DNA from: a virus
Taxonomy: Duplodnaviria; Heunggongvirae; Uroviricota; Caudoviricetes
Reading direction: 5' to 3' (one strand)
IMG/VR virus record: IMGVR_UViG_3300032030_000012
Span: 114,756-178,755 of that record
Length of the DNA stretch: 64,000 bases
The notes beneath the pieces are model-generated. The model searched no databases. It had not been told where the DNA came from and saw only the letters and a list, made by a program, of their open reading frames with translations. A program made the position numbers and the translations under genes. Position 1 is the stretch's first letter; the number at the start of each line of letters is the position of its first letter. Shown piece by piece: positions 1-58,123 of this stretch.

Positions 1-196
1 ATATTGTTTATATAATGTTGTCATTAATTCTATAACTCTTTTTCTAATATTATAATTATTAGCTGATAATTTTTCAATATGATTAATAGTCAAAATTTCA
101 TCATCATGACTAACTACCATAGCAATATTAGAATATCCATGTATATCTATAGTTAAAACAATATTAGGTTCAATTTTCTTTTTTCTACTCACTATT
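1..196 (-). CDS. hypothetical protein, 5' portion (GTG start near 196 after GAGGAGG RBS; continues beyond window start)
   Basis: Open minus-strand frame 196->1 preceded by strong RBS gaggaggataaataGTG; not in ORF track because it is truncated. Confidence 0.3.
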
Positions 197-300
197 TATC
201 CTCCTCATCTTTTAGACGAAAATAAAAATTTAACCATCTATAGATTCTTTCAGGACCAATAGTTAATCTTCTAGGTAATAAAAATTGATACCACCAACCG

Positions 301-594
301 CTATTGTGTCTTTTGAATAGACTCATCTTCTTCATCCTCCTCATTCAATGTATTAGATATATCTCTTAATACAGTAAAAGGATTCATGCCTTCTTTGTAG
401 TTTCTATGATGATGTTCTATCATACATAATCTATTTTTAACATGTGTAAATTCTTTATTTTTACTAATTAACTGTTCATATAATTTTTTACATTTAATTT
501 TTGATCTTATAAATAATATTAAAAATGTTAATGCTAATGCAGATACTCCAATTATTATAATTAATTCTTTATTCATTATTATCCCTCTTAACAA
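301..594 (-). CDS. hypothetical small membrane protein (one TM helix)
   Basis: ORF track; hydrophobic stretch LIIIIGVSALALTFLILFI; probable true start MNKEL at 576. Confidence 0.5.
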   Translation of the reverse strand: MLRGIIMNKELIIIIGVSALALTFLILFIRSKIKCKKLYEQLISKNKEFTHVKNRLCMIEHHHRNYKEGMNPFTVLRDISNTLNEEDEEDESIQKTQ

Positions 595-640
595 AAATAG
601 CTATCAATACAGATTTATAGAATACTGATAGCTATTAAAG

Positions 641-811
641 TTATTTACTTTCTGGAAATAGATATGGATCTAATCCATGTTTTTTAGTTTTTTGTATTTC
701 TAAATTATGTAATTTCCAGCAATAATTTCCATATCCTCTTTCCTTTGCTATATCGTTTTTTAATATTCTATTGCATCTTTGACATCTTTGATATTGAATT
801 TTAGTTTCCAT
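641..811 (-). CDS. small Cys-rich hypothetical protein (CxxC), about 56 aa
   Basis: Unlisted ORF METKIQYQRCQRCNRILKND...; RBS agaggtagagattatATG. Confidence 0.35.
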   Translation of the reverse strand: METKIQYQRCQRCNRILKNDIAKERGYGNYCWKLHNLEIQKTKKHGLDPYLFPESK

Positions 812-836
812 ATAATCTCTACCTCTTTTTAATAGA

Positions 837-2468
837 TTACATCATACCTGGTAGCGGACCTGAAAGTTGTAAAACATTTTGGTCTTTCTCAGGCTCGTCA
901 ACTATTAAACCTCCCATTGTAATAACTGTTGATGCTATTGATGTTGCATTTAAAATTCCATATCTATCTACTTTAGCTGCGTTTATAACTCCAGTTTCTA
1001 CTAGATTTTCATATTCTCCAGTTAAAGCATTAAATCCTAATTGTTTATTATAACAATTTGCTACTGTCATAGGACCATCAAATCCAGCATTTTCTGCTAT
1101 TTGTCTTGTTACAGATTCTAATGAATTATATACTATTCTTTCACCTAAAGTTCCTTCTCTTTCTGGAGCATTGATAACAGCTGATAAGAAACTATAACCT
1201 CCACCTGGAACTATACCTTCCTCCATAGCAGCTTTAACAGAATTAATAGCATCTTCAATTCTTAATTTTTTATCTTTTATTTCAATTTCAGAATTTCCAC
1301 CAACTTGAATAACAGAAATTCCAGAAATTAAATTAGATATTCTTCTTTTATATTGCTCTCTATCAGATTCTTCAGGTATGTTTTCCATTATACCTGTAAT
1401 TTCTTCTACTCTAACTTCTCTCTCATCTTTTAAATCAATTCCAGTTGAACTTGCATCTTTAAATTTTAAAACAGTATCATCAGGAGTAATTATAGCTTCT
1501 TCTACCTCTCCTAACATAGATATGTCAAAATCTCTAAAGGTTCTTCCAATATCTCTTCCCATTAAAGTAGCTCCAGTAGCAATACAAATATCTTCTATAA
1601 GATTTTCTCTTAATTCTCCAAATCCAGGTAATCCTATTATTGAAACATTTAAAGGAGCTCCTTTAGCTTTATTTACTAAAATCATGTTTAAAGGCTCAAA
1701 ATCAATATCATTACATATGATTAACAATTTTAATCCTTCTTTAACAACTGTATCTAAAATAGGTAATATATCTGTAACACTATCTATTTTATCTTTAGTT
1801 ATTAATACTTTTGCATCTACAATTTCTGATTTCAAATTAATTCTATCATTTAATAAATAATTACTTAAAGTACCATTAGCTAATTTCATACCTTGAATAT
1901 TATCTAAATGATCTTTTCCTGTTTTACTATCTTCTACAATAACAGATCCAAATTCTCCAGCATTTGCAAAAGCATCTGCTATTAATTTTCCTGTCTCTTC
2001 TGAGCCTGAAGAAATGGTTGCTACTCTTTTTATAGCTTCATTATCTTTAACAGGTATTGCAATTGATTTCAAATAATCACTTATTTCTTCACTAGCTTTA
2101 ATCATGTCTTTTTGTATTTGAACAACATTAACATCTTTATGTTCTTCTTTATATTCATCAAAATATTTATGAATCATTTCTTGAGCTAATATAGTAGTTG
2201 TAGTTGTTCCATCTCCTGCTACTAAATTTGTTTTATTAGCTGCTTGTATAATAAGCTGTGCTCCGGCATCTTCTGCATTATCTTTTAAATGAATAGATTT
2301 AGCAATTGTAACACCATCGTTTGTTATAATAGGAGCTGAAACAGCTTCTCTTATTAAAACATTTCTACCTTTTGGTCCAACTGTAGTTTTAACAATATTT
2401 GCTACTGTATCAATACCTTTGACTACTAAATCTTTGGCCTCATTATCATATTTAATTATTTTATTCAT
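837..2468 (-). CDS. groEL: GroEL chaperonin (Hsp60)
   Basis: 543 aa with GroEL hallmarks: VGPKGRNV, AGDGTTTTTILAQ, C-terminal GMM. Confidence 0.95.
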   Translation of the reverse strand: MNKIIKYDNEAKDLVVKGIDTVANIVKTTVGPKGRNVLIREAVSAPIITNDGVTIAKSIHLKDNAEDAGAQLIIQAANKTNLVAGDGTTTTTILAQEMIHKYFDEYKEEHKDVNVVQIQKDMIKASEEISDYLKSIAIPVKDNEAIKRVATISSGSEETGKLIADAFANAGEFGSVIVEDSKTGKDHLDNIQGMKLANGTLSNYLLNDRINLKSEIVDAKVLITKDKIDSVTDILPILDTVVKEGLKLLIICNDIDFEPLNMILVNKAKGAPLNVSIIGLPGFGELRENLIEDICIATGATLMGRDIGRTFRDFDISMLGEVEEAIITPDDTVLKFKDASSTGIDLKDEREVRVEEITGIMENIPEESDREQYKRRISNLISGISVIQVGGNSEIEIKDKKLRIEDAINSVKAAMEEGIVPGGGYSFLSAVINAPEREGTLGERIVYNSLESVTRQIAENAGFDGPMTVANCYNKQLGFNALTGEYENLVETGVINAAKVDRYGILNATSIASTVITMGGLIVDEPEKDQNVLQLSGPLPGMM

Positions 2469-2787
2469 TTATTTTACCTCCAACTTCACTATCATATATC
2501 TTATAAAGTTCAGTCTGAATATACTCTCTAAATTCCTTATTTGATGGATGCGCTATATCAGAATATTCAAAAGTTTCACTATAACTATCTCCATTAGATG
2601 TATATTTTTTCACTTTTTTATTTGGAAAACTAATTATTCTTCTATCTTCAAGTTGTACTAATCTAATATCATGTACAATAAAACAATCATTAAATTGTAT
2701 ACTTGCTATTCCTAATAAACTAGATTCAGGATTATTGTTTTTCTTTATTCTTATACTTGTTATTTTCATTTCATTCATGTTAGTCAT
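2461..2787 (-). CDS. spoVG: SpoVG-like protein
   Basis: 108 aa; core IQFNDCFIVHDIRLV...DIAHPSNKEFREYIQ matches SpoVG (VHDIRV...DIAHPIN) conservation. Confidence 0.75.
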   Translation of the reverse strand: MTNMNEMKITSIRIKKNNNPESSLLGIASIQFNDCFIVHDIRLVQLEDRRIISFPNKKVKKYTSNGDSYSETFEYSDIAHPSNKEFREYIQTELYKIYDSEVGGKINE

Positions 2788-3091
2788 TGTCTCCTTCTAT
2801 AATTAATAATATCATTGATTCTGATAATATTGTATAATCTTTATTACCATCATTATAGTTATCTCCCTGCATTTTTGAAAAAACTATTTTATCTCCAACC
2901 TTTACTTTTAAAGGCACTATTTCACCATTACTTAATAATCTTCCTTCACCAACTGCTACGACGGTTCCTACCATTGTTGAATTATTTGATAAACTCATAT
3001 TTTTAGTATATGATAATCCTGATGATGAAGTGATTTCTTGTTTATCATTCAACTCTACCACTATTTTTTCGTATAAAGGCCTCAAGTTCAT
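2780..3091 (-). CDS. groES: GroES co-chaperonin (Hsp10)
   Basis: 103 aa; MNLRPLYEKIVV...VGEGRLLSNGEIVPLKVKVGDKIVF matches GroES pattern and mobile loop. Confidence 0.85.
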   Translation of the reverse strand: MNLRPLYEKIVVELNDKQEITSSSGLSYTKNMSLSNNSTMVGTVVAVGEGRLLSNGEIVPLKVKVGDKIVFSKMQGDNYNDGNKDYTILSESMILLIIEGDND

Positions 3092-3371
3092 TTTTTAATT
3101 CTTCCTCCTTTTCTTTCTTAGTTTTTTTAGACTCATCAGGTGCTTTTCTAGAGGCATCTCCAAAAACGATAGAATGAGCTGTATAATACTTTTTATCTTT
3201 ATCTCTAACAAAACCTTCATCTATTCCATCAGAAATTCTCAAAGCATCTTTATAATCGTTGAAATATTTAATTCCATTCATCATTTTGGAGATGCAATTT
3301 CTACCTGTTTCTTTATAATAACCTACAAGTTCACCTGTAGTTTTATTAAAGATCTTTATATAATATTGCAT
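3045..3371 (-). CDS. hypothetical protein
   Basis: ORF track; 3' end overlaps groES start by 47 nt. Confidence 0.45.
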   Translation of the reverse strand: MQYYIKIFNKTTGELVGYYKETGRNCISKMMNGIKYFNDYKDALRISDGIDEGFVRDKDKKYYTAHSIVFGDASRKAPDESKKTKKEKEEELKNELEAFIRKNSGRVE

Positions 3372-3401
3372 TTTTATCTCCTTTATATTTTTTATAACAA
3401 C

Positions 3402-3749
3402 TTAACTTGTATATTTAATAAAAGCATATATAAAATTACCTTCTATATTACTGATTCCGAAATCAATTATTTTATAATTATTCATAACTAATTCTTTCAT
3501 TTTATTATTCATATAGTCACTTAAACTCATTTCTTGGTATCTTAAATCAGCAGCTTTGATTAAAATAATTGATGGGCAATTTATTACTATTTTATCATTA
3601 TCCATTCTTTCGAATTCTTCTTTTAACTTACCTGTTATTTTTACTAAATTTTGATTAATAGCTGATGAAACGTTGTAACTTTGTTGATTAGAAATATTTC
3701 TAATATTTTCACAGACTTTTAACATATTATCAATATCACTTTTGCGCAT
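3402..3749 (-). CDS. hypothetical protein
   Basis: ORF track. Confidence 0.5.
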   Translation of the reverse strand: MRKSDIDNMLKVCENIRNISNQQSYNVSSAINQNLVKITGKLKEEFERMDNDKIVINCPSIILIKAADLRYQEMSLSDYMNNKMKELVMNNYKIIDFGISNIEGNFIYAFIKYTS

Positions 3750-4292
3750 TTAATCTTCCTCCTCTACTAGATTATCAAGTACTTTTAATATTATATCAAT
3801 TTTCTTATCTTTCTGGACTTCATTTAATTTTCGAACTAAATCTAAATTTTGTTTATTTATTTTATGTTTATTTGTTTCTATTAAAGCTTCTTTAGCTAAA
3901 TTAATTTTATCTTGTTTTACAGATATAAATATAGTATTTTTTGTAGCAACTTCTATATTATCTATAATCACTTCTACATCAAAACAATTTGTATAATCAT
4001 CTATATCTAAAAAATAATCTAAATATAACCATAAAATCCTATTAGATTTTATAGATAATTTTAAGCCTTCACTAGCAAGTCTACTTGCTAAATTCTTTCT
4101 ATAACTTAAATGATTTCGAGGTTTATATCCAATACTAAGTAGATATGATTCACATTTTTTAATTGCAGAAGATTGAATTCTATTAATCATTGTAGAAGTA
4201 TGAGCAACATTATTTCTATCTAATCCTCTTTCAATTTTTTCAGCCCATTTATTATAAGATTCATCATATTTTAATTCTATTTGTTTTCCCAT
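3750..4292 (-). CDS. hypothetical protein
   Basis: ORF track. Confidence 0.5.
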   Translation of the reverse strand: MGKQIELKYDESYNKWAEKIERGLDRNNVAHTSTMINRIQSSAIKKCESYLLSIGYKPRNHLSYRKNLASRLASEGLKLSIKSNRILWLYLDYFLDIDDYTNCFDVEVIIDNIEVATKNTIFISVKQDKINLAKEALIETNKHKINKQNLDLVRKLNEVQKDKKIDIILKVLDNLVEEED

Positions 4293-4354
4293 AGATTATC
4301 CTCCTCATCATTTAGATAAGGTTGTTGTCAAGTATAAGTGTCCCTCAGTAACCA

Positions 4355-4633
4355 TCATTTATCTAATCTCTTTATCATTTCTTGTATAGTTTCTCTTCTG
4401 TTCTTAAATTTATATAAATCTACTAAATCTTCATTATTTAGTAATAAAAATTTTCTTTCAATTATATTAATCATAGTATCAAGTTGAGTTTCAACTCTTT
4501 CTAGTTTTTTCATAGTAGATTGACCCATTAGTTTTGTATAAGACTTATTATAAAGTATAGCATAATTTAAATCGGCTAAATTTTTAATATCACAAGCTAG
4601 TTGTTTAATTATTAAATTTTCCTCATTCTCCAT
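4355..4633 (-). CDS. hypothetical protein
   Basis: ORF track. Confidence 0.5.
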   Translation of the reverse strand: MENEENLIIKQLACDIKNLADLNYAILYNKSYTKLMGQSTMKKLERVETQLDTMINIIERKFLLLNNEDLVDLYKFKNRRETIQEMIKRLDK

Positions 4634-4651
4634 ACTTTAATCTCCTAATAT

Positions 4652-5161
4652 TTAATTTCCAGTAGAACCAAATCCACCAGCTCTTTCAGCTGTTATTTCT
4701 TCTTCATTAGTTACAGTATAGTATTTCTCGAATATTCCTTGACCTAATTTATCTCCTGCTTCGATAACAGTATCTTCATCTGTAAAATTATAAAACATAA
4801 ATCCAATTTCTCCGTCATTATCTAAATTTCCATAATAATCAGCATCTACTATACCAACACCATTAGCTAAAAATATTCCTTTCTTTTTAGGATTAGAAGA
4901 TCTATTATATAATTTTAAAGCCATATCGCTAGGAAATTGAGCTTTAATTCCTGTTTTAATTAATTTTAAACTATGTGCTGGTATTACTGTTTCTAAAGGA
5001 TTATAAAAATCATATCCAGCAGAAAATTTAGTACTTCTTTCAGGTAATCTTCTATAAGGACCTCCTTCACTAGCTTCTCTTAACAATCCTGTAAACTCAA
5101 ATTTAATTGGTGTAGGTTTAATATAAACATCACTTGTTGGACCTTCACAATTATCATACAT
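4652..5161 (-). CDS. dut: dUTP diphosphatase (trimeric dUTPase)
   Basis: Motifs AGYDF, RSS, GVGIVDADYYG, C-terminal RAGGFGSTG. Confidence 0.85.
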   Translation of the reverse strand: MYDNCEGPTSDVYIKPTPIKFEFTGLLREASEGGPYRRLPERSTKFSAGYDFYNPLETVIPAHSLKLIKTGIKAQFPSDMALKLYNRSSNPKKKGIFLANGVGIVDADYYGNLDNDGEIGFMFYNFTDEDTVIEAGDKLGQGIFEKYYTVTNEEEITAERAGGFGSTGN

Positions 5162-5402
5162 TTTTATTTCCTCCTTTAATTTTATTATATATTTTATAAA
5201 TAATAGATAGAGGTATTAATATAATCCATCCTAAAGAACAAGTGAGTAAAAATAAAACTTTAACTTCTCCATAAATAATTTGTCCTTCAGGATCATTTTT
5301 ATCTTCTGATATAACTATGTATAACATTACTATCCCATATATAAAACCTATTAAAATATAAATTAATCCTCCAACTATTAAATTCATCATCTTTTGAATC
5401 AC
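5154..5402 (-). CDS. hypothetical membrane protein (2 TM)
   Basis: ORF track; hydrophobic. Confidence 0.5.
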   Translation of the reverse strand: MIQKMMNLIVGGLIYILIGFIYGIVMLYIVISEDKNDPEGQIIYGEVKVLFLLTCSLGWIILIPLSIIYKIYNKIKGGNKNV

Positions 5403-5608
5403 TCCTTTTTGTTTTGCTCAATTATCTTTATGCATTCATTAAATTTTTCTTTCACTTGTTTATCTTCCTCAGTTTCTTTCTTCATAAATTCTAATATCGA
5501 ATTTACTTCGTGTCTTTCAATTGTTTTAAATATTATCTTAATAATAGCTATAATTATAACTAAAAATATTATACCAAGTATGATAAAAAGTGCATATTCA
5601 CTTCCCAT
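5399..5608 (-). CDS. hypothetical membrane protein
   Basis: ORF track; N-terminal TM. Confidence 0.45.
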   Translation of the reverse strand: MGSEYALFIILGIIFLVIIIAIIKIIFKTIERHEVNSILEFMKKETEEDKQVKEKFNECIKIIEQNKKE

Positions 5609-5640
5609 AGCCTTCTAACTCCTTCTGTAATATTGTCATA

Positions 5641-7593
5641 CTAATAAGATTTAACTCTACTTAATCCATTTTTATCTTTAATAACAGTAATAACAGAATC
5701 ACAACCAATAGGAATTTCTTTATGAGATACCATATAAATACTTTCTAATGTTTCTAACTCATTATTAATTAAATCTATTACTTTAGTTTCTGCTTTACTA
5801 TCACAATATCCTAAAATCTCATCTAATATTATCATATTACAATTCATATTACCAATCATTCCAGCTAATGATTTTTGAGCTAATAATAATGCAATATTAA
5901 CTCTTGTTTTTTCTCCTCCTGATAATGATTCATATGTAGCATTTCCTAATTTAATATCTAACTTTGTATCATCTTCAGAAATAGAAATAACATCTCCTTC
6001 ATTACTAAATAATTGATTTGAATATTCACTTAGAACCTTATTTAAATATTTTAAGCTATTTTTTAAAAGATAAGTTCTAAACTCTTTAGTTATTAATTGA
6101 AGCATATGTTTTATAGAATTAATTGTATTATCACATTCGGTTAATTCTAGTTGTTTATTATTATATAAGTCATCTATATTTAATAATTGTTTATCTATAT
6201 CTTCAATCATTTTTTCAAATTCTTCTTTACTAGCAACTTCAGTCTTTAGAATTTGTTCTTTTTTACTTTGTAAAATATTTATTTCATGTTGAATACTCTC
6301 TTTTTTATTAGTTTCTAATTTTACATTATTCATTAATATTTTTCTTTGATTTTCTTCATTTTCTATATTTTTATTTCTATTTTCTACATTTTTATTTATT
6401 TCTTTTGCTTTATTTTCAATTTCATCTTTTTTAGCCTGGATATCTTTTAATTGTTTTTCATACTCATTAATATTAGAATTACAATCATTAATAATATTAT
6501 TTAAATTATCTATTTCACTATTTTTCTCTTTTATAGTACTTTGCAAATGTTCATCATTAAAATTATCATATTTTCGACCACATGTTGGACATGTATCAGA
6601 ATTTTTTATCTTATCAATCTCTTTATTAATTTTTTCTATTTCTTCTTCTTTTAAATGTATTAATAATTTATCTTTATTAATATCAGCTTCTATTTTTGAC
6701 AATTGATTATTAACATCTAAAAGTTGTTTATCTACTTCTGTTTTTGCATTTAAATCATCTTGACTTTCTTTTCTCAAATCTTCTATTTGTTTTTCTTTTT
6801 CAGACACAGCTTGATTTGCCTCTTCAATTAATATATCTTGATTTGATAATTCTTGTTGTTTACCTTCTATATCCAGTTCAATTTGCTTTAAATCTCCTAA
6901 AGCTTTTAATCTTTCAATTTCTTCATCTATAGCTTTAATTTTTTCATTTAATTGAGATTTCTGATTTATTAAAGCAGATTTTTTTCCTTCCATTTGATTT
7001 ATATCATTTACAATATCTACTCGATCTGCTTCATATTTTATCTGCTGCTCTTTTACTTTTTCTTTAAAATTATTTATTGTATTATCTGTATTTGTTAATA
7101 CTTCTAGTCTTTCTCTTCTAGCTGTTGGTTGTAATGATGCTAAATTTGTTACTGCATTCTGAGATAAGAAAATCGTATCTAAAAATATACTCTTTGATAT
7201 ACCTAAAAGATTTAATATTAGTTTATTAGTATCGGTTTTATTTCTTGCAGATATATCTATATTATCTTTATATAATAATACTGAAGATTTACCATTTTTA
7301 CCTTCCCTATAAATTGTATATTTCACACCATCTATTTCAAGTTCTAATTTTAATTTATATCCATTACCTATAATTCTATTTTCTACATCTTTTTCACCAG
7401 AACTTGTTTCTTCAAATAATGAGTATATTATACCTTCAAATATTGAAGATTTTCCTGAACCGTTAGATGTAGCATTATCTTCATATTCATTAATACCTTT
7501 TACAATGACTGTTCCTTGATTATTTAAAATGATCTGTGCTTTATCGATAGATCTAAAACTCTCTAATTCAATTGATAAAAATTTTAAATTCAT
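5641..7593 (-). CDS. sbcC: SbcC/Rad50-like recombination ATPase (T4 gp46-like)
   Basis: Walker A GSGKSS, long coiled coil with CPTCG zinc hook, signature LSGGEKTRVNIALLLA, Walker B MIILDE. Confidence 0.85.
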   Translation of the reverse strand: MNLKFLSIELESFRSIDKAQIILNNQGTVIVKGINEYEDNATSNGSGKSSIFEGIIYSLFEETSSGEKDVENRIIGNGYKLKLELEIDGVKYTIYREGKNGKSSVLLYKDNIDISARNKTDTNKLILNLLGISKSIFLDTIFLSQNAVTNLASLQPTARRERLEVLTNTDNTINNFKEKVKEQQIKYEADRVDIVNDINQMEGKKSALINQKSQLNEKIKAIDEEIERLKALGDLKQIELDIEGKQQELSNQDILIEEANQAVSEKEKQIEDLRKESQDDLNAKTEVDKQLLDVNNQLSKIEADINKDKLLIHLKEEEIEKINKEIDKIKNSDTCPTCGRKYDNFNDEHLQSTIKEKNSEIDNLNNIINDCNSNINEYEKQLKDIQAKKDEIENKAKEINKNVENRNKNIENEENQRKILMNNVKLETNKKESIQHEINILQSKKEQILKTEVASKEEFEKMIEDIDKQLLNIDDLYNNKQLELTECDNTINSIKHMLQLITKEFRTYLLKNSLKYLNKVLSEYSNQLFSNEGDVISISEDDTKLDIKLGNATYESLSGGEKTRVNIALLLAQKSLAGMIGNMNCNMIILDEILGYCDSKAETKVIDLINNELETLESIYMVSHKEIPIGCDSVITVIKDKNGLSRVKSY

Positions 7594-7988
7594 TTATTGT
7601 ACTCCTTTTCAGTATATACTCTTTTATGATTATCTGCTAAATAATCTTCAGCATTCTTGTATGAAATATAATCATCACTTGCTTGACATAACTTATCTTC
7701 ATCCATTTTTAATTCAATTAAAGCTAAAATACTGTAATTAGCTAAATCCATTAAAGTATCTTGAACTTTTTCATCTTGAACTAAATTATCTTTATTATTC
7801 AAAGTTAAATTTGTAACTCTATTTAGTTTATCAGATAATCTAACTAAAAAAGAAGTTAATCCAAATTTTTCATAAGTATCTGTAACAGAACTACCATAAT
7901 CTCTATTCTTTCTAATATATAAATCATGCATTTCATCTAGTAGTTGTTTATGAATAGATTCTCTTTTTTGATATTCACTTTCTGTCAT
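7590..7988 (-). CDS. possible MazG-like/DUF1599 all-alpha NTP-pyrophosphohydrolase-like protein
   Basis: Motifs RKNRDYG...KFG...DKLNR...DLANY; assignment made from memory. Confidence 0.35.
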   Translation of the reverse strand: MTESEYQKRESIHKQLLDEMHDLYIRKNRDYGSSVTDTYEKFGLTSFLVRLSDKLNRVTNLTLNNKDNLVQDEKVQDTLMDLANYSILALIELKMDEDKLCQASDDYISYKNAEDYLADNHKRVYTEKEYNK

Positions 7989-9167: not shown

Positions 9168-10109
9168 TTACTTGTCGTACAAAAAGAGATTCCCCAGTGG
9201 GTAGCCTTCATTTACTCGCTTGATAGCATCAGCAAACAAAGGAGCGATAGACAGTACTTCAATCTTTGGTTCCTGTTGATAAAAAGGTACAGTGTTTGTT
9301 ACAACGATCTTCTCAGCAGCTGATTCTCTAAGACGTTCTACAGCCTTATCAGCAAAGATAGCATGAGTAGCTCCAGCATAAACAGCTTTAGCTCCTTTTG
9401 CACTGCAAATATTAATAGCTTCTACCAAAGTACCACCTGTACTAATCTCATCATCAAAGATTAAACAAGTTCTTCCTTTGATATCTCCTACAATATCTAC
9501 AGCTTTCGCACTATCACTATTGTCTTCACGTTCCTTATCGATCATAGCAATTGGACAACCTAAAAGCTTTTTATACTTATGAGCTTTTTTAGTTGAACCC
9601 GCATCAGTTGCTACTACAGTGATATCTTCAAGATGAAGTGATTTGAAATAATCAGCTAACATGTAAGTTGCTGTTAAAACATCACACCCAATATCAAAGT
9701 ATCCCTGAATAGCAGGATTATGAAGATCGCAAGTCATAATACGATCTGCTCCAGAAGCTTCGATCAGTTTAGCCATTAACTTTGCAGTTATAGGTACTCT
9801 AGGCTGATCTTTTTTATCAGAGCGAGAATACATGTAGTAAGGTAATACAACGGTAATGCGACGTGCGGAAGCTCTTTTTGCAGCTTCTACTGCAATTAGA
9901 AGTTCCATGACCCTTTCGTTGACAGGCGGTTCAGTTGTTTGAATGATGAAAATGTCTTGCTCCCTAACACTCTCGAGAAACTGAACGAAATTGTTATCGT
10001 TCTTGAACTTGAATGAGTTCATCTGTCCTAACGGAAGATCGAGACACTTACATACCTCCTTAGCAAACGGTACAGCACTGTTACAAGCGAAAATCTTTAT
10101 GTCTTTCAT
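9168..10109 (-). CDS. prs: ribose-phosphate pyrophosphokinase (PRPP synthetase)
   Basis: 313 aa full-length Prs (DLHNPAIQGYFD, VVATDAGSTKKA, DDEISTGGTL); locally GC-richer than neighbours. Confidence 0.9.
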   Translation of the reverse strand: MKDIKIFACNSAVPFAKEVCKCLDLPLGQMNSFKFKNDNNFVQFLESVREQDIFIIQTTEPPVNERVMELLIAVEAAKRASARRITVVLPYYMYSRSDKKDQPRVPITAKLMAKLIEASGADRIMTCDLHNPAIQGYFDIGCDVLTATYMLADYFKSLHLEDITVVATDAGSTKKAHKYKKLLGCPIAMIDKEREDNSDSAKAVDIVGDIKGRTCLIFDDEISTGGTLVEAINICSAKGAKAVYAGATHAIFADKAVERLRESAAEKIVVTNTVPFYQQEPKIEVLSIAPLFADAIKRVNEGYPLGNLFLYDK

Positions 10110-23973: not shown

Positions 23974-24741
23974 TCATTTCTTAAATCTATGTAATAACAT
24001 ATTTATAAATCTTAATATTTTTTGCCATATAGTTTGATAAGTATCTATTGTATTTTCTTTTGTTGAAATAGCCCAAGCTGAATCAATAGGATAATCATAA
24101 GGAAGTATAGCTTGACCTTTATCTCCCCAATATTTACCCCAGCTATTTTGAATTATGTAACCATAGGGATTATAACCACAAATTATAATCATATGATATC
24201 CTTTTAATTCACCTTCAGGTTCTTTAATAATATAATTTAAATCATAATCTAAATCATTATAAACTGGAATTGAAATAGGTACTGGAGTATTTTGAAGAAG
24301 ACACTTTTTTATTTCTTCTTCAGTATAAATTCTAGCATATGATTCTATTTTATATTTTTCAGCAATTGGTTTTAATTTATCTATATTCTCATCAACAATG
24401 TCTTTAATTTCTTTCATTTCTTTATTGTGATCAAAATTATCTCTAGGAACATCTCCTATCTTTTGTAAAGTTTTTAATGCTTCTCTAGGATACATTCCTT
24501 GTTCTTGATTATAAGTTATAGGTCTATATCCATATATAAATCCTGTAGACATTTTTTCATTATTAAATTTTTCTAAAAATGTAGCTAAAGAGTGAGCTAC
24601 ACAAGAATTAACAATACCTTGATCTTTAACCTCAGATATTGTTAATTCATATTTCTCAGGAAATTTTGGAGCAGAAACTATTTTCGATTTAAACTTATAA
24701 TCCCTTTTATCTGGTATCTCTTTCTTACTTCCGTAATACAT
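23974..24741 (-). CDS. papain-family (C1A-like) cysteine peptidase
   Basis: QGIVNSCVAHS (Gln/Cys), GYHMIIICGYN (His), NSWGKYWGDKGQAIL (Asn/Trp): the full catalytic signature of papain-like proteases. Confidence 0.7.
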   Translation of the reverse strand: MYYGSKKEIPDKRDYKFKSKIVSAPKFPEKYELTISEVKDQGIVNSCVAHSLATFLEKFNNEKMSTGFIYGYRPITYNQEQGMYPREALKTLQKIGDVPRDNFDHNKEMKEIKDIVDENIDKLKPIAEKYKIESYARIYTEEEIKKCLLQNTPVPISIPVYNDLDYDLNYIIKEPEGELKGYHMIIICGYNPYGYIIQNSWGKYWGDKGQAILPYDYPIDSAWAISTKENTIDTYQTIWQKILRFINMLLHRFKK

Positions 24742-51043: not shown

Positions 51044-51787
51044 TTAATTTCCTTTCTGTTTATTATTAAATTTAATTACATCTTTTATTAGTTCTATATT
51101 ATATTGATTTGCTATTGCAGGTACATCTTTATTTAAACAATGACTATCCCAGAAAGGAGTATCTTCATATACAAAAGTATGTGAAGGATTTACTCTAGGA
51201 TCTAAAACAAATAATTCTCTTACTTCAGAATAATTAATATCTTCTTCCTTACATATATTATAGAAAGCTTGACAGAAACTTACTTTTGTAGCTAAAAAAG
51301 AATTCTCCATGAATTTTACAGTTTCAGCTACTTTAGATTCTACGGATCTAAATATATGTCTTCCATCATAACAAGGTAATAATATTTGAATTATATCATT
51401 ACAATCTTTTTTATTACCTCCTAAAATTGTAAAATCAAAATAATAATTATTACAATGTTTAGTTCCTCCATAATATTCTGGACTAAAAACAATTCTTTTA
51501 TTTGTTTCTTTAATCAATTTATCAACAGTACCTACAGGACAAGTTGATTTAATACAATAAATTTCACAGTTATAATCATTTATACAATTTTTAACTTCTG
51601 TTATATCTAATACATTATCTTTTAATGGAGTATCAACACATATAAATCCTAAATCATATCTAATATCTTTTATAGTATTTACTTCTGGTTTATATTTATC
51701 TACAATATCAGGATTTAAATCTTTTAATTCATTTGCTAAATTATGACCAACTACTCCATATCCAATTATTAATACATTTTTCACCAA
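51044..51787 (-). CDS. UDP-glucose/GDP-mannose dehydrogenase-family protein, truncated (NAD-binding plus central domain, no C-terminal UDP-binding domain)
   Basis: IGYGVVGHN Rossmann motif, FICVDTP, ENSFLATKVSFCQAFYNICK; TTG start. Confidence 0.6.
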   Translation of the reverse strand: MVKNVLIIGYGVVGHNLANELKDLNPDIVDKYKPEVNTIKDIRYDLGFICVDTPLKDNVLDITEVKNCINDYNCEIYCIKSTCPVGTVDKLIKETNKRIVFSPEYYGGTKHCNNYYFDFTILGGNKKDCNDIIQILLPCYDGRHIFRSVESKVAETVKFMENSFLATKVSFCQAFYNICKEEDINYSEVRELFVLDPRVNPSHTFVYEDTPFWDSHCLNKDVPAIANQYNIELIKDVIKFNNKQKGN

Positions 51788-51821
51788 TAATATCTACCTC
51801 TTTCGTTAAAGTATTATGTAT

Positions 51822-51832
51822 TAATATTTTAC
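51822..51832 (-). promoter_or_regulatory. conserved promoter-like motif TAATATTTTAC
   Basis: Exact copy 35 nt upstream of the TTG start at 51787. Confidence 0.45.
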
Positions 51833-51839
51833 TTATTTT

Positions 51840-52214
51840 TTAACATTGCTTAATTATAGTATTGGTATATCTTCTTAATAATTCAGTCATATTTTTTCTA
51901 CCTACAGGATTAGATGTATGAATTCTAAATTCATTACAAGATATATTATTTTCTATAATATATTTACAAATATCATATCCAGTCTTTTCTTCCCCTAAAT
52001 CATGATCTAAACATATTATATCATATTTAAATCTATGTAATTCATGAATAGCTTCATTATAAGATCTAGCTATAAATGTATGATATTCTCCTATATAATT
52101 ATTAGGAATTCCTCTTAAATCATCTATCCATAATAAATATTTTTTAGGTTCTTTCTTTTTAGCTATATGATCTTCATACCATTTCATAGCAAAATAATTA
52201 TCAAAATTACTCAT
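51840..52214 (-). CDS. stand-alone receiver (REC/CheY-like) fold protein, hypothetical
   Basis: LLWIDD...ICLDHDLG...IHTSNP spacing resembles the receiver-domain acidic pocket. Confidence 0.3.
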   Translation of the reverse strand: MSNFDNYFAMKWYEDHIAKKKEPKKYLLWIDDLRGIPNNYIGEYHTFIARSYNEAIHELHRFKYDIICLDHDLGEEKTGYDICKYIIENNISCNEFRIHTSNPVGRKNMTELLRRYTNTIIKQC

Positions 52215-53485: not shown

Positions 53486-53559
53486 TGGCTCCTCAGATAA
53501 GATTCGAACTTATAATAAACGGTTAACAGCCGCACGTGATACCCTTTCACCACTGAGGA
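53486..53559 (-). tRNA. tRNA-Asn (GTT)
   Basis: Manual cloverleaf: acceptor tcctcag/ctgagga, D gtga/tcac, anticodon loop cTGTTaa, T-arm ataag-ttcgaat-cttat, encoded CCA. Confidence 0.8.
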
Positions 53560-53562
53560 ATA

Positions 53563-53994
53563 TTAAATATTTATAATAGCTTCAAATGAATTTATTTCAT
53601 AATAAATAACTCTTTTAGATTGATTATTTTTAGTAGGCGTATATCTAATTACTACTTCATTTTTATTATAATCATTATTTTTATATAAAAATAATTTATC
53701 TTCAGTTATATTATAAAAAGCATAATAATCAATTTCATCTTTATAAAAGAGTTTTTTATATCCTTTACCGTTATTATTTTTAGTATTAGAAAAAGAATAT
53801 AAAGGAAAACTACAAGTACCATTCTTTTTTAAAGAAGCAGATTTTACTTGAATTTTATTAAGCTTATTATTAAATTCAGCTATTATATCAGCTCTCTCAT
53901 TATCTCCAAAAGGAATATAAACAGGAACATTTAAAGATATAAATTTACATAAAGTTTTTATTTCTCCTAAATTTCCTTTATTTTTAGAATTCAT
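53563..53994 (-). CDS. possible PD-(D/E)xK-type nuclease (homing-endonuclease-like position inside tRNA island)
   Basis: GNLGE ... GDNERADIIAE ... IQVKS spacing; weak. Confidence 0.3.
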   Translation of the reverse strand: MNSKNKGNLGEIKTLCKFISLNVPVYIPFGDNERADIIAEFNNKLNKIQVKSASLKKNGTCSFPLYSFSNTKNNNGKGYKKLFYKDEIDYYAFYNITEDKLFLYKNNDYNKNEVVIRYTPTKNNQSKRVIYYEINSFEAIINI

Positions 53995-54149
53995 TTAATC
54001 TCCCTTTCAAAAATATTGAATGAGTATATTTTAGTAGCAAGTTTTTTACTTCTACACGGCACCTAATACTCTCTTATGCTCAGTCCATATTATTCTTCTT
54101 ATCCCTTATGAACTAGGGATATGTAAGCTTACAAGTCCTTTATAGGACT

Positions 54150-54223
54150 TGGCTCGGGAAACTAGACTCGAACTAATAATACAGGAGTCAAAGTCCTGTG
54201 TGATACCATTTCACCATTCCCGA
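54150..54223 (-). tRNA. tRNA-Gln (TTG)
   Basis: Acceptor tcgggaa/ttcccga, D gtga/tcac, anticodon stem cagga/tcctg, loop cTTTGac, CCA encoded. Confidence 0.8.
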
Positions 54224-54331
54224 ATATAAGTATGAGTAGGCATTGACTCGTACATGCGTCCACATACTATCGCACTTAATAGGTTGTTTACCGACCTACT
54301 CATATAAAACAGAGATGCTATAGTCATCTCT

Positions 54332-54405
54332 TGGAGGTACAGATTGGAATCGAACCAATGATCGAGCTTTTGCAGAGCTTTGTCTTGCCACTTGACTACT
54401 GTACC
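54332..54405 (-). tRNA. tRNA-Cys (GCA)
   Basis: Acceptor ggtacag/ctgtacc, anticodon loop cTGCAaa, T-arm attgg-ttcgatt-ccaat, CCA encoded. Confidence 0.8.
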
Positions 54406-54438
54406 ATATATCAGAGAGTATCTCTACTCTCTATTTGA

Positions 54439-55926
54439 CTATAATTCTTTTGGTTTTGTTAAATCTTCTTTTTTATCTTCAACAGATTTTGCTCCTAGTT
54501 TACCTACAGCATATCCTGCTACTATTGATTTTAAATCTACTCCTAAACTATCTTGAGCTACTTTTAATATCTTATCTATTTTTTGAGTTCCACTTTCTAT
54601 TAATTGAGTTGATTGATCTCCATACATTGTAATTGAATCTACATTTGATAATGGAGTAGATACTTCTTTAGCTATATCGGGAAGTTTATTTATAATCATT
54701 TCTACTACTGAAGCTTGTTGCATTTTAGCTTGTGCTTCTGCTTTCTTTTCGATACCTTTTGCTTCTGCAATACCTTTTGCTTCAATACCAGCTGCTTCAG
54801 CTTCTAATTTTGCTTTTATACCATCAGCCTCTGCTACTGCTTTAGCTCTTATAGCTTGAGCTTCTAATTCTGCTGCTTCTTTATTAGCTTTTGCTATTTC
54901 TATTTTAGCTTGAGCTTCTTGTTTTGCTTTTTCTAGATCAGCTTGAGCATTTTGTATTGTAACTTGTTTTTGAGCTTCTGCATTAATTTCTGCTTTATAT
55001 TTATCTGCATCAGCTTGTTTTCTAACTTCTGCATCTAATTGTTTTTCTCTTAAAGCTACTTCTTTTTCTTTTAATTCAGTTTCTTTTTCTGTTTTAGCTA
55101 TTTCAGCAAGAACTGTGTTTTCATTTATAAGCTTTTGTCTTTCAGCTTTTTGTATTTCATAAATAGTATCAGCTTCTGCTTTTTTCTTATCTTGTTCAAT
55201 TTGATATTCATATTGTTTTAAAGCTAACTCTTTATTTTGTTTTGCTATTTCAGCTTCTGATGCTGCTTTAGCTTCATTACCTTCTCTAGCTGCAGCTGCT
55301 TGTGCTACTTGAACATCTCTTTCAGCTTGGGCTTTTGCTATTTTAGCATCTTTTTGAATCTTTGATAAATTATCAATACCTAAATCATTAATAGCATTAT
55401 TCTCATCTGTACAAGATTGTACATTTAAGTTTACTATTTCTAATCCTATTGCTTTAATATCGTCTTTAGCATTTTCTTGAATTTTAGTTGAAAATAATTG
55501 TTTGTTATTAACTAAATCTTTAAGATTCATTTGACCAATTATTTCTCTCATGTTTCCTTCAAGAACTTGTTGAACATTTCTTGCAATATACTCAGGATTT
55601 TGATTTAGGAAATGTCTTGCAGCTACCTGTATTAATTCAGGGTTGTTAGGTATTCTAACATTTGCTACAGCATCTACATCTACATTAATAAAATCAGATG
55701 TAGGAACTCTTGATGTCTTAACATCAATTTGAATTAACTCTAAAGTTAATTTATCCACTCTCTCAAAGAATGGGATTCTTAATGTTGCTTTACCTATTAT
55801 TACTCTAGGTTCTTTTTTAAGACCTGATATTAAATATACCATATCTGGTGGACATTTAACATAGCTCATGAAAATTAAACCTATCAGCAATATTACAGCA
55901 ACAGCGATAATGATTGCTAATACCAT
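54439..55926 (-). CDS. SPFH/band-7 flotillin-like membrane protein
   Basis: N-terminal TM, SPFH core, long Ala/Glu/Lys-rich coiled coil (flotillin/YqiK architecture). Confidence 0.8.
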   Translation of the reverse strand: MVLAIIIAVAVILLIGLIFMSYVKCPPDMVYLISGLKKEPRVIIGKATLRIPFFERVDKLTLELIQIDVKTSRVPTSDFINVDVDAVANVRIPNNPELIQVAARHFLNQNPEYIARNVQQVLEGNMREIIGQMNLKDLVNNKQLFSTKIQENAKDDIKAIGLEIVNLNVQSCTDENNAINDLGIDNLSKIQKDAKIAKAQAERDVQVAQAAAAREGNEAKAASEAEIAKQNKELALKQYEYQIEQDKKKAEADTIYEIQKAERQKLINENTVLAEIAKTEKETELKEKEVALREKQLDAEVRKQADADKYKAEINAEAQKQVTIQNAQADLEKAKQEAQAKIEIAKANKEAAELEAQAIRAKAVAEADGIKAKLEAEAAGIEAKGIAEAKGIEKKAEAQAKMQQASVVEMIINKLPDIAKEVSTPLSNVDSITMYGDQSTQLIESGTQKIDKILKVAQDSLGVDLKSIVAGYAVGKLGAKSVEDKKEDLTKPKEL

Positions 55927-56102
55927 TTATCTCTACCTCCAAATAAATAATATTTGTCTGTCTCTCCAGACTGTCACGTTGCTTCTTAATGTACTTCTTG
56001 CTCAACACAACGTTTGAACGAGACAAAGTTGCCGTGTACACCTGACCTGTAGAAATATCTGAGTTTCACTACAGAGAGGACTCAAACGCTCATACCTCAT
56101 AC

Positions 56103-56176
56103 TGGCAGGAGTGGTAAGAATTGAACTCACATTAACGGTTTTGGAGACCGTAGTCCTACCATTGAACGACACTCCT
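56103..56176 (-). tRNA. tRNA-Trp (CCA)
   Basis: Acceptor aggagtg/cactcct, anticodon stem acggt/accgt, loop cTCCAaa, T-arm gtgag-ttcaatt-ctcac, CCA encoded. Confidence 0.8.
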
Positions 56177-56244
56177 ATTTAATTTCGTCAAAACACAAGA
56201 TAGTTTCAAATGTAATGACGAAATATTAAGACTATTTTTCTTCC

Positions 56245-56331
56245 TTTAGGAAGATGGTGGAGAAAGAGGGTATCGAACCCACTCGGGCCAAATGACACGT
56301 GATTTACAGTCACGCCCCGCTCCTTACGGGA
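56245..56331 (-). tRNA. tRNA-Tyr (GTA), class II with long variable arm
   Basis: Acceptor ggagaag/tttctcc, anticodon stem cgtga/tcacg, loop cTGTAaa, T-loop ttcgata, CCA encoded. Confidence 0.7.
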
Positions 56332-56337
56332 CTACTT

Positions 56338-56424
56338 CTCCATATACTGGCGCCTTGGTGAAGTGTCGATCTCCATACATTTCTGTACCACTTGTTTTCA
56401 AGACAAGGTTTGGGGCCGCCCAAA
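56338..56424 (-). tRNA. tRNA-Ser (TGA)-like class II tRNA with unusual potential 6-bp D-stem/4-nt loop
   Basis: Acceptor gccttgg/ccaaggc, anticodon stem cttgt/acaag, loop cTTGAaa, 5-bp variable arm, CCA encoded; its 5' end coincides with the predicted start site of the promoter at 56431..56440. Confidence 0.55.
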
Positions 56425-56430
56425 GTACCA

Positions 56431-56440
56431 AGGCATATAT
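56431..56440 (-). promoter_or_regulatory. extended -10 (TTGTTATAAT) promoter of the tRNA operon
   Basis: Seen directly; predicted start about 56424. Confidence 0.5.
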
Positions 56441-56451
56441 ATTATAACAAA

Positions 56452-57027
56452 TTAATTATCTTCTTTTAATAGATCAGTTCCTTGTATTTCTTTTCCATTT
56501 TCATCATATACTGTAAAGTAGTTAAGTAGATCTAATCTATTCATCAATTTTAAAAACATTATTAGTTTTTTAGAATCTACTCCTCCTTTTGGATCTAAAC
56601 AACTATTAAAAGCATATAACAAAATGATATTATAATCATTATAAATTAAATCATCAAAAGTACCACATTTTCTATCTTTATGTAATGTAGAATTCCAAGA
56701 AGTTCTTTTTTCATACATATCTCTTCTCTTTTTCCAATCTTTATGATTACACATAAAGTCTTTACATACAAAAGGTCTAACAGGATATATATTACATTTT
56801 TTATTTTTACTATCATAGAAACAACATTGAGCTATAAGTTGATTTTCATTAATAATTCTATTAGTAGGTTTAATATTATTTACTTTCACATAATCTTTTA
56901 TTAATCTTAATTCTTCATCAGTGAATGGAATAAATAATCCACAACAAGATCCACATCTACTACATTCACCATTACATGTCATATCATTTATTACTCCAGG
57001 TTTTGCTTCATTTTTATTAATTAACAT
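56452..57027 (-). CDS. YkgJ-family (CxxCxxCC) putative Fe-S/zinc-binding protein
   Basis: CNGECSRCGSCCG motif. Confidence 0.55.
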   Translation of the reverse strand: MLINKNEAKPGVINDMTCNGECSRCGSCCGLFIPFTDEELRLIKDYVKVNNIKPTNRIINENQLIAQCCFYDSKNKKCNIYPVRPFVCKDFMCNHKDWKKRRDMYEKRTSWNSTLHKDRKCGTFDDLIYNDYNIILLYAFNSCLDPKGGVDSKKLIMFLKLMNRLDLLNYFTVYDENGKEIQGTDLLKEDN

Positions 57028-57209
57028 TTTATTACTCCTTATATCTACCAGTTTCTACATCTATATATAATTGTCTTAATTCTTCATTATCCATATCATC
57101 TGAATGAGGTATATTATGATCTCTTAACCAACATTCTAATGTTCTTCTTTCATTTTCATATCCAGGTAAAGACCATAATTCAGCATTTTCACTCATAAAG
57201 TCAACTCCT

Positions 57210-57557
57210 TTAAATTTTAGTTATTATAGGACAATATCTAGTTTGATAATTAATTTTATACATATTATTAATATAAATAGCTTTAAGATTACCTGTCCTA
57301 GTATAATCTTCTTTTAATTCATTTATTTCTATATTTAAAATAGTTTTATCTAACTCATCTCTATAAGTAAGATAAGGATTATAAGTACCTTCATTTACTT
57401 TTTTAATAGCTCTATCATATTCTTTTTGAAACTTATCTATAATAAGTTGAGGTGCTTGTAATTCTTTTAATTTAACTATTCCATTTTCTTTTTCTTTTAA
57501 TTTTTCTTTATGTTGATTTATCAATAAATCTTTTATAGTCATAATAAATACCTCCAT
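57210..57557 (-). CDS. hypothetical protein
   Basis: ORF track. Confidence 0.5.
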   Translation of the reverse strand: MEVFIMTIKDLLINQHKEKLKEKENGIVKLKELQAPQLIIDKFQKEYDRAIKKVNEGTYNPYLTYRDELDKTILNIEINELKEDYTRTGNLKAIYINNMYKINYQTRYCPIITKI

Positions 57558-57608
57558 ATCTATTATAACATATTTTTTAAAAATAGTAACGTGATTTATA
57601 TAAATTTA

Positions 57609-58076
57609 TTAATCTTCTTCAGCTGAAAAATATATATCTTGTTTATCCATTTCTTCTTTTTCATATTTTCTTAATTTAGTTATTATATCATCATATATAT
57701 CTACCATTACATTAGAATCTATTTCTTGATTCATAGTAGTATCTCTACCTAAATATTTATACCAAGATATTTCTAAATCCTTCATATTAGCTTTAGATTT
57801 ATCTACATAATATTTAAAATTATATTTTTGACATTCATCATCATTCCAATTATAAGCTTCTACCTCAAATACATTATCTAACTTAAATTTATTTCCAGTA
57901 TTACTAAAAGGACTGTCCCATTCTTTATGAGTTATATTATGCATAATCCTATTTAATTCATTATCAATACTATCAAGTAATGCTATAATATATTCAGGAC
58001 ATTTGTATCTTTGTATAGCATTTGGATTAAACATCATATTTCCTAGTTCTAGATTTTCTATATTTGATTCTTCCAT
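57609..58076 (-). CDS. hypothetical protein
   Basis: ORF track. Confidence 0.5.
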   Translation of the reverse strand: MEESNIENLELGNMMFNPNAIQRYKCPEYIIALLDSIDNELNRIMHNITHKEWDSPFSNTGNKFKLDNVFEVEAYNWNDDECQKYNFKYYVDKSKANMKDLEISWYKYLGRDTTMNQEIDSNVMVDIYDDIITKLRKYEKEEMDKQDIYFSAEED

Positions 58077-58123
58077 TTATATCTACCTCTTTTTCTGTTT
58101 AGAGAGATGAAAATATCATCTCT

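Follow-up and report, generated by a model that had tools for sequence, protein, structure and literature searches.

A conserved phage gene block with spoVG between groES and groEL, probably a single operon, in an uncultured clade of large viruses

The usual chaperonin clients for phages are large structural proteins. Viral operons in which groES precedes groEL are frequent in marine viromes and virioplankton (Marine et al. 2017, PMC5649160), and phage GroELs that lack a GroES have been characterized biochemically (PMC7185714, PMC9598537). Phage-borne homologues of spoVG have been noted in Clostridium perfringens podophages (PMC3362512) and in gut viromes (PMC10294663). The DNA analyzed here is a stretch of 64,000 nucleotides (nt), called the window below, which covers positions 114,756 to 178,755 of the IMG/VR virus record IMGVR_UViG_3300032030_000012. 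On its minus strand a spoVG homologue lies between homologues of groES and groEL. Phage groES-groEL operons and phage spoVG genes are thus each known, while their conserved combination appears to be new: a search of the literature on SpoVG, GroEL and phage gave no account of a spoVG inside a phage groESL operon, and no cultured phage with this arrangement was found among 50,697 deposited phage genomes. The genes probably belong to a conserved, co-transcribed and translationally coupled operon, (orf115)-up108-groES-spoVG-groEL-DUF6011, which would make a phage chaperonin together with an independently acting regulator of the SpoVG family.

The locus resembles the virioplankton operons (PMC5649160) in having both a Group I chaperonin and a co-chaperonin, in the order of groES and then groEL, in its variant GroES mobile loop and in a GroEL that is distinct from the cellular clades. 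It differs from them in that spoVG, joined in some members by a small open reading frame (ORF), stands between groES and groEL, so that the two are not adjacent. The upstream gene is an orphan ORF of 108 amino acids (aa), whereas in the virioplankton operons it often encodes a small heat-shock protein, and the sources are gut, other host-associated or anaerobic metagenomes rather than marine viromes. An earlier note on this DNA had called a groES and groEL pair uncommon in phages, which is correct for cultured phages but not for viromes, where such operons are common.

The GroEL-like ATPases of the large or jumbo phages EL (gp146, from a Pseudomonas phage), OBP and AR9 (a Bacillus phage) are likewise presumed to fold phage proteins (PMC7185714, PMC9598537). 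However, these chaperonins are co-chaperonin-free and very divergent, whereas the window phage has a canonical-looking GroES gene adjoining its GroEL gene region. Phage T4 gp31 and RB49 CocO are also co-chaperonins supplied by a T4-like virus. As summarized in PMC5649160, both are without the roof hairpin and depend on the host GroEL, whereas the window phage keeps the hairpin and carries its own GroEL.

The SpoVG homologue shares with the cellular proteins (S. epidermidis 2I9Z, B. subtilis 2IA9, and those of S. aureus, Listeria and Borrelia) the Pfam family, the fold, a K/R-K doublet, the DI(A/V)HP motif and the C-terminal helix. It is unlike them in its longer hairpin, in an identity of about 30-35% and in its groESL context, as opposed to any host locus. 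The SpoVG homologues of C. perfringens podophages (such as phiCPV4/CPS2) and of gut viromes (PMC10294663) are also phage-borne and are presumably early regulators. Those phages, however, are 18-35 kb long, are without chaperonin genes and carry spoVG in replication or early modules, and their proteins are 28-34% identical to the window protein.

The three genes named in the earlier note lie on the minus strand of the window where they had been placed (Table 1). The groES stop codon (TAA, 2782..2780) overlaps one candidate start of spoVG, ATG 2787, by 8 nt, and is separated from the other, ATG 2778, by a 1-nt gap (TAAcATG). ATG 2778, giving a protein of 105 aa, is more likely to be the start, because its spacing from the Shine-Dalgarno (SD) sequence is 12 nt, as at groES (compared with 3 nt to ATG 2787), because most homologues begin with MKITS, and because 105 aa is the length found in most of the 90% cluster of the window protein and in one independent ENA gene call. 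The spoVG stop codon (TAA, 2463..2461) overlaps the groEL start (ATG 2468) by 8 nt (ATGAATAA), and groES is 326 nt upstream of groEL in the same putative operon. Of the two overlaps reported earlier, that of 8 nt is present at both junctions, or is replaced by the 1-nt gap between groES and spoVG, while that of 47 nt is formed by up108 (3371..3045) with groES and is found at no junction among the three named genes.

A scan of positions 1-6000 found no minus-strand terminator-like site between the genes, the sole one being inside up108. There were 39 promoter-like sites in this region compared with 46 in shuffled sequences, and the promoter and terminator scan was uninformative. An Rfam scan of the same positions (E<=0.1) gave no match, hence no known leader or riboswitch in the junctions. 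Tight packing on one strand, with SD sequences embedded in the preceding genes, is most likely the signature of a co-transcribed, translationally coupled operon. The block consists of at least five conserved genes, since up108 and the DUF6011 gene extend it beyond the three first named.

Relatives were sought in IMG/VR, in a collection of 5.8 billion proteins and in GTDB genomes, and loci L001-L023, L096, L097, L123 and L124 were fetched. The order (orf115)-up108-groES-spoVG-groEL-DUF6011 is found in every clade locus fetched, with identities to the window of 59-68% for GroEL and 33-66% for SpoVG. The clade is abundant. More than 120 GroEL clusters were recovered at 67-100% identity to the window protein, 28 SpoVG clusters at 52-90% identity, and 68 up108 clusters. 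One of the SpoVG clusters has index entries in 297 blocks of the collection, some of them from human-gut metagenomes, and its contigs reach 196 kb. The phages of the clade, from gut and other metagenomes, are about 160-215 kb long, and the recovered clusters lie on contigs of up to about 215 kb.

The layout of the junctions is conserved in 10 diverged loci. In these, the codons for the acidic C-terminus of GroES contain the SD sequence of spoVG, the final codons of spoVG contain that of groEL (or of an extra ORF), and the start codons are situated from -14 to +7 nt from the preceding stop codon. Tight translational coupling, which had been inferred earlier from the window, is thereby upheld. 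The most divergent subclade, L020-L023 (GroEL identity 59%), still has spoVG between groES and groEL, and its SpoVG is 92 aa long and is without the hairpin insertion described below. An extra ORF of 73 aa with overlapping stop and start codons, which is absent from the window, stands between spoVG and groEL in L020 (3787-4008) and L023 (about 3788-4000); it has no family match. In L001 a spacer of about 210 nt (4790-5000) separates spoVG from groEL.

The ratio of nonsynonymous to synonymous substitution rates (dN/dS) was calculated by the Nei-Gojobori method for the two least-saturated pairs. It is 0.10-0.14 for spoVG, 0.12 for groEL, 0.07-0.19 for groES and 0.10-0.18 for up108, all of these values being rough, as dS is 0.7-2 and thus near saturation. 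The spoVG gene is evidently maintained under purifying selection like the chaperonin genes, as judged from these substitution rates. A decaying insert, considered as an explanation of its presence, was ruled out by the dN/dS of 0.10-0.14 together with 17 invariant columns across 26 sequences.

The window is, by its gene content, T4-like myovirus DNA. Its structural genes encode a portal, a tail sheath, a T4-type baseplate protein and a tail lysin, and other phage-type genes encode SbcCD, a helicase, a thymidine kinase, a dUTPase and a 5'-3' exonuclease. The closest cultured relatives of the portal are those of T4-like myoviruses of Streptococcus, Listeria and Bacillus, at 26-31% identity. DNA and protein searches of the deposited phage genomes found no cultured relative, and hence no annotated reference was usable; the best identities there are at most 38% for GroEL, 37% for SpoVG and 40% for GroES, and several of the matches look like host contamination. 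The relatives of the window are IMG/VR viral contigs of 56-214 kb. These contigs, the portal, sheath, baseplate and lysin genes, and seven tRNA genes confirm the phage origin proposed earlier for the cluster.

The cluster might instead be host DNA at the edge of a prophage, or part of a mis-binned bacterial contig. Many of the IMG/VR GroEL matches with no more than 40% identity are host groEL genes that lie at the ends of predicted prophages, and several "phage" records with GroEL, GroES or SpoVG matches have the appearance of host contamination. However, the cluster lies inside 64 kb of phage genes on the same strand (50 of the 52 ORFs of at least 120 aa are on the minus strand) with a GC content of 27% that is uniform throughout (22-33%), the relatives carry it in the interior of viral contigs of up to 214 kb, and the flanking up108 and DUF6011 genes are clade-specific. 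In addition, GroEL identity in IMG/VR drops from 59-68% within the clade straight to 40% or less, the level of the host groEL genes at prophage edges and of cellular GroELs. An origin in host DNA is extremely improbable, and such an artifact is effectively refuted by the phage context and the GroEL identity gap. Because of the same gap, from at least 59% to at most 40%, the clade is regarded as a discrete, old viral lineage.

The groEL product matches the Pfam family Cpn60_TCP1 (PF00118) with E=2.6e-53 and 181.9 bits against a cut-off of 34.3, and PHROG 5725, "chaperonin groEL", with E=2.6e-116, in agreement with the earlier assignment. It passes the NCBIfam GroEL subfamily models NF009487 (464.7 > 352) and NF000592 (456.4 > 397), and its identity to cellular GroELs is at most 40%. 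Among PDB chains, T. thermophilus GroEL is matched best (E=2.6e-112, residues 1-532), ahead of many Hsp60s from bacteria and mitochondria, whereas the chain of EL gp146 (6tmt) matches at E=7.7e-28. The nucleotide-binding and catalytic motifs AGDGTTTTT, ITNDGVTI and RIEDA are invariant in the clade. Upon alignment to T. thermophilus GroEL, the apical residues equivalent to L234, L237, L259 and V264 are hydrophobic and that equivalent to F204 is L (E. coli numbering, for these positions and for Y199 below). These features indicate a co-chaperonin-type Group I chaperonin, unlike phage EL gp146. Two GroEL homologues of the clade (P0126 and P0133) are about 870 aa long and have a LAGLIDADG_3 domain (PF14528), which suggests an intein or a homing endonuclease inserted in phage groEL.

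The groES product matches Pfam Cpn10 (PF00166) over profile positions 1-92 of 93 (E=1.8e-21, 76.4 bits against a cut-off of 21.1), is labeled co-chaperonin GroES in PHROGs, and aligns over its full length with GroES chains in the PDB (E=2.3e-18 to 5e-15). Its mobile loop is four residues longer than that of E. coli. The glycine of the loop is invariant in the clade. The tripeptide after it, which in GroES proteins is hydrophobic and binds GroEL, reads L-S-Y in the window protein and L-[TSVE]-[YFVW] across the clade. Clade members retain a roof hairpin, G-x-G-R-L-[LM]-x-[ND]-G, that aligns to GNGRILENG of E. coli.

The spoVG product matches the Pfam family SpoVG (PF04026) over profile positions 1-81 of 82 (E=7.6e-21, 74.5 bits against a cut-off of 29.6). 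The identities given earlier to both small ORFs are thus supported by profile searches, in which each exceeds its Pfam cut-off. The SpoVG chains 2i9x, 2i9z and 2ia9 in the PDB are matched at E=1.5e-10 with about 30% identity. An AlphaFold2 (AF2) model of the protein has a mean confidence (pLDDT) of 89.4, and in a Foldseek search with it the ten best PDB matches are all SpoVG chains (probability 1.0), the next match having E=0.6. The TM-scores for these chains are 0.60-0.72 when normalized to the query and 0.68-0.89 when normalized to the target. The homologue is therefore predicted to keep the SpoVG fold, a beta-sheet core with a C-terminal helix.

The residues K56-K57 of the window protein align to K-R of the S. 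epidermidis protein and to K50-R51 of S. aureus. K57 is invariant in the clade, and all members except one have K or R at position 56. The helix with DI(A/V)HP...FR is also conserved, H-P...F-R being invariant. In cellular SpoVGs the basic doublet is required for DNA binding (K50-R51 in S. aureus, R53-R54 in Borrelia), while the helix determines specificity (PMC3688583). In the subclade of the window, the beta-hairpin that precedes the helix has about 12-14 additional residues; this extension is absent from bacterial SpoVGs and from the L020/L023 subclade.

In the favored explanation, that of an operon with an independently acting regulator, GroES and GroEL would together make up a Group I chaperonin specific to the phage, with phage proteins as its clients. 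The neighbors of the chaperonin block are genes for dUTPase, SbcCD, Prs, a helicase and a 5'-3' exonuclease, and the operon would be placed in the early or middle nucleotide-metabolism and replication region of the phage. Cellular SpoVG is a general RNA- and DNA-binding regulator that is also present in non-sporulating bacteria (PMC4959528, PMC3688583), and it binds RNA in Listeria and B. subtilis (PMC4959528; bioRxiv 10.64898/2026.04.02.716078). By analogy with the Listeria, B. subtilis, S. aureus and Borrelia proteins, the phage homologue would be a regulator binding RNA, single-stranded DNA or DNA. It would be made simultaneously with the chaperonin and in a fixed ratio to it, and would act post-transcriptionally or on DNA, on host or phage targets, without being a physical part of the chaperonin. 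The presence of spoVG inside groESL might then be an ancestral insertion, kept because the gene rides on the expression signals of the operon.

Several observations weigh against this explanation. The GroEL is under the cut-off of the NCBIfam equivalog TIGR02348 (455.5 compared with 582.1 bits), the GroES misses all NCBIfam equivalog cut-offs (69 < 120), and the SpoVG is under the 108-bit cut-off of the equivalog NF009749 (60.3 bits for the window protein and 67.3 for the L020 type), so that functional equivalence to the cellular proteins is not assured. The equivalent of GroEL Y199 is T, and the GroEL C-terminus (...NVLQLSGPLPGMM) is without GGM repeats. The middle residue of the GroES mobile-loop tripeptide is often polar; a comparable polar variant of the tripeptide is reported in 23% of viral GroES (PMC5649160). 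The dN/dS figures suffer from the saturation mentioned above. Lastly, a direct functional link to the chaperonin could be the reason why spoVG has stayed at one site between groES and groEL despite deep divergence.

Such a link would make the SpoVG-like protein a component of the chaperonin system, either as an autoregulator of the operon mRNA that sets the GroES:GroEL output or as an adaptor that brings nascent or RNA-associated clients to GroEL. In all clade members, even at 59% GroEL identity, spoVG keeps strictly to its position between the chaperonin genes, with translational coupling on both of its sides and with selective constraint comparable to that of the chaperonin genes. Cellular SpoVGs also bind 5' untranslated regions, which in Borrelia include that of spoVG itself (PMC11086051). 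However, the literature searched offered no precedent for an interaction between SpoVG and a chaperonin, and SpoVGs elsewhere, both phage and bacterial, are unlinked to groESL; chaperonin-free phage SpoVGs are situated in early or replication modules in L121, L122 and the C. perfringens podophages. Across subclades SpoVG diverges faster than its neighbors, with 33-43% identity compared with 57-61% for GroES and GroEL, and the additional ORF can part spoVG from groEL. Conservation falls on the nucleic-acid-binding apparatus, with no new conserved surface. For these reasons SpoVG is taken to be independent of the chaperonin, and a partnership between them is considered quite unlikely. A more specific version, in which the protein is a third, RNA-binding component that couples translation of particular phage mRNAs to folding by GroEL and GroES, or that exerts feedback control on the operon, would account both for the fixed place of spoVG between the two chaperonin genes in the whole clade and for the remodeling of its beta-hairpin, but is very doubtful.

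A special case of the regulator model has a defined target pathway. By analogy with its namesake, and along the lines suggested in the earlier note, the phage SpoVG might mimic the host SpoVG and delay asymmetric septation or sporulation in a spore-forming host, so that the cell stays vegetative for the lytic cycle. The name SpoVG comes from a stage V sporulation defect in Bacillus, as summarized in PMC3688583. In a survey of gut phages, spoVG is counted among the sporulation-related genes that phages carry, and interference at the post-transcriptional level is proposed (PMC10294663). The closest cultured relatives of the portal infect Bacillota, and a scan of genome contigs found clade contigs in metagenome-assembled genomes (MAGs) of "uncultured Clostridia" or "Bacilli", alongside genuine bacterial SpoVGs at about 33% identity. 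Together with strong GGAGG SD sequences and low GC, these are weak pointers to a Bacillota host, and the source is taken to be a T4-like phage of about 200 kb from an uncultured, probably Bacillota-infecting clade. On the other hand, a scan of about 50 window proteins against Pfam or PHROGs, which took in about 40 of the 52 ORFs that reach 120 aa, found no further sporulation gene, and SpoVG regulates many traits other than sporulation in the non-sporulating Listeria, Staphylococcus and Borrelia (PMC4959528, PMC3688583). The phage protein itself is about 33% identical to the bacterial SpoVGs retrieved, is under the equivalog cut-off and has a clade-specific hairpin extension. Interference with sporulation is accordingly regarded as unlikely.

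The genes flanking the three central ones are less familiar. The up108 protein has no family match in Pfam, PHROGs or NCBIfam, and no HSP20 match. It has only 15 representatives among 1.84 billion proteins, and its AF2 model is moderately confident and has no convincing structural neighbor. The gene occurs in all clade members and nowhere else in the sequence space that was searched. Upstream of it, orf115 has counterparts at the same relative position in L002, L007, L013, L020, L023 and L096 (34-41% identity by tblastn) and no Pfam or PHROG family match. The DUF6011 gene follows groEL in every clade locus and may be a member of the same transcription unit. Two or three genes upstream of groES, the relatives L003 (2638-3342) and L007 (2571-3044) have a match to PF25185 (Tad3); the window ORF at the equivalent position has no significant Pfam match.

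Other genes of the window were also noted. A full-length homologue of Prs, ribose-phosphate pyrophosphokinase, with SbcD on one side and the helicase on the other, is a phage-carried gene of nucleotide and NAD-precursor metabolism. A DUF1599 protein ("nucleotide modification associated domain 1") is encoded between the SbcC and SbcD homologues and hints at DNA base modification by the phage. A papain-family cysteine protease gene adjoins a P2-I-like tail or baseplate gene, and a gene for a protein with a cyclic-phosphate processing receiver (cREC_REC) domain adjoins a truncated-looking UDP-glucose/GDP-mannose dehydrogenase ORF with a TTG start. The SPFH/flotillin gene within the tRNA cluster is unusual phage cargo.

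Table 1. Features of the 64,000-nt window, with coordinates in window numbering
Feature	Coordinates	Strand	Evidence or remarks
DUF6011 Cys-rich protein, 56 aa, directly downstream of groEL	641..811	-	Pfam DUF6011 E=1.2e-6, 28.4 bits vs cut-off 26.6
groEL, Cpn60 Group I chaperonin homologue, 543 aa	837..2468	-	Pfam Cpn60_TCP1; SD GGAGG 2481..2477 inside spoVG 3' end, 8 nt before ATG
SpoVG-family gene, 108 aa (ATG 2787) or 105 aa (ATG 2778)	2461..2787	-	Pfam SpoVG; SD GAAGGAG 2797..2791 inside groES 3' end
groES, Cpn10 co-chaperonin homologue, 103 aa	2780..3091	-	Pfam Cpn10; SD AAGGAGG 3110..3104, 12 nt before ATG 3091
up108, orphan ORF, 108 aa	3045..3371	-	SD AAAGGAG (strong) before ATG
orf115, conserved hypothetical ORF upstream of up108, possible transcription-unit member	3402..3749	-	tblastn
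ORF at position equivalent to Tad3-matching gene of relatives	3750-4292		
DUF1599 protein	7590-7988	-	
Prs homologue	9168-10109	-	
Papain-family cysteine protease	23974-24741	-	Peptidase_C1, E=3e-11
cREC_REC domain protein and adjoining dehydrogenase ORF	51044-52214	-	
Seven tRNA genes: Asn, Gln, Cys, Trp, Tyr, Ser, Pro	53486-58715	-	mixed with PD-(D/E)XK endonuclease, flotillin gene, CxxCxxCC protein
SPFH/flotillin protein	54439-55926	-	Band_7 and Flot; NCBIfam FloT E=3e-76, under equivalog cut-off

Phage chaperonins are a small, actively studied class, and nearly all of the biochemistry has been done on co-chaperonin-free types such as EL gp146. The clade described here supplies phage GroES and GroEL as a complete pair, from gut-associated phages that are abundant and about 200 kb long, with a SpoVG-family regulator apparently hard-wired into the translationally coupled chaperonin unit. 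The operon can be synthesized and tested in B. subtilis or E. coli without phage culture. If SpoVG is merely co-expressed, the clade would provide a clean case of a phage mimic of a global post-transcriptional regulator, deployed early in infection, and a compact, diverged set of SpoVGs for defining the binding targets of the family. A functional tie between SpoVG and the chaperonin would instead represent a new accessory logic for Group I chaperonins.

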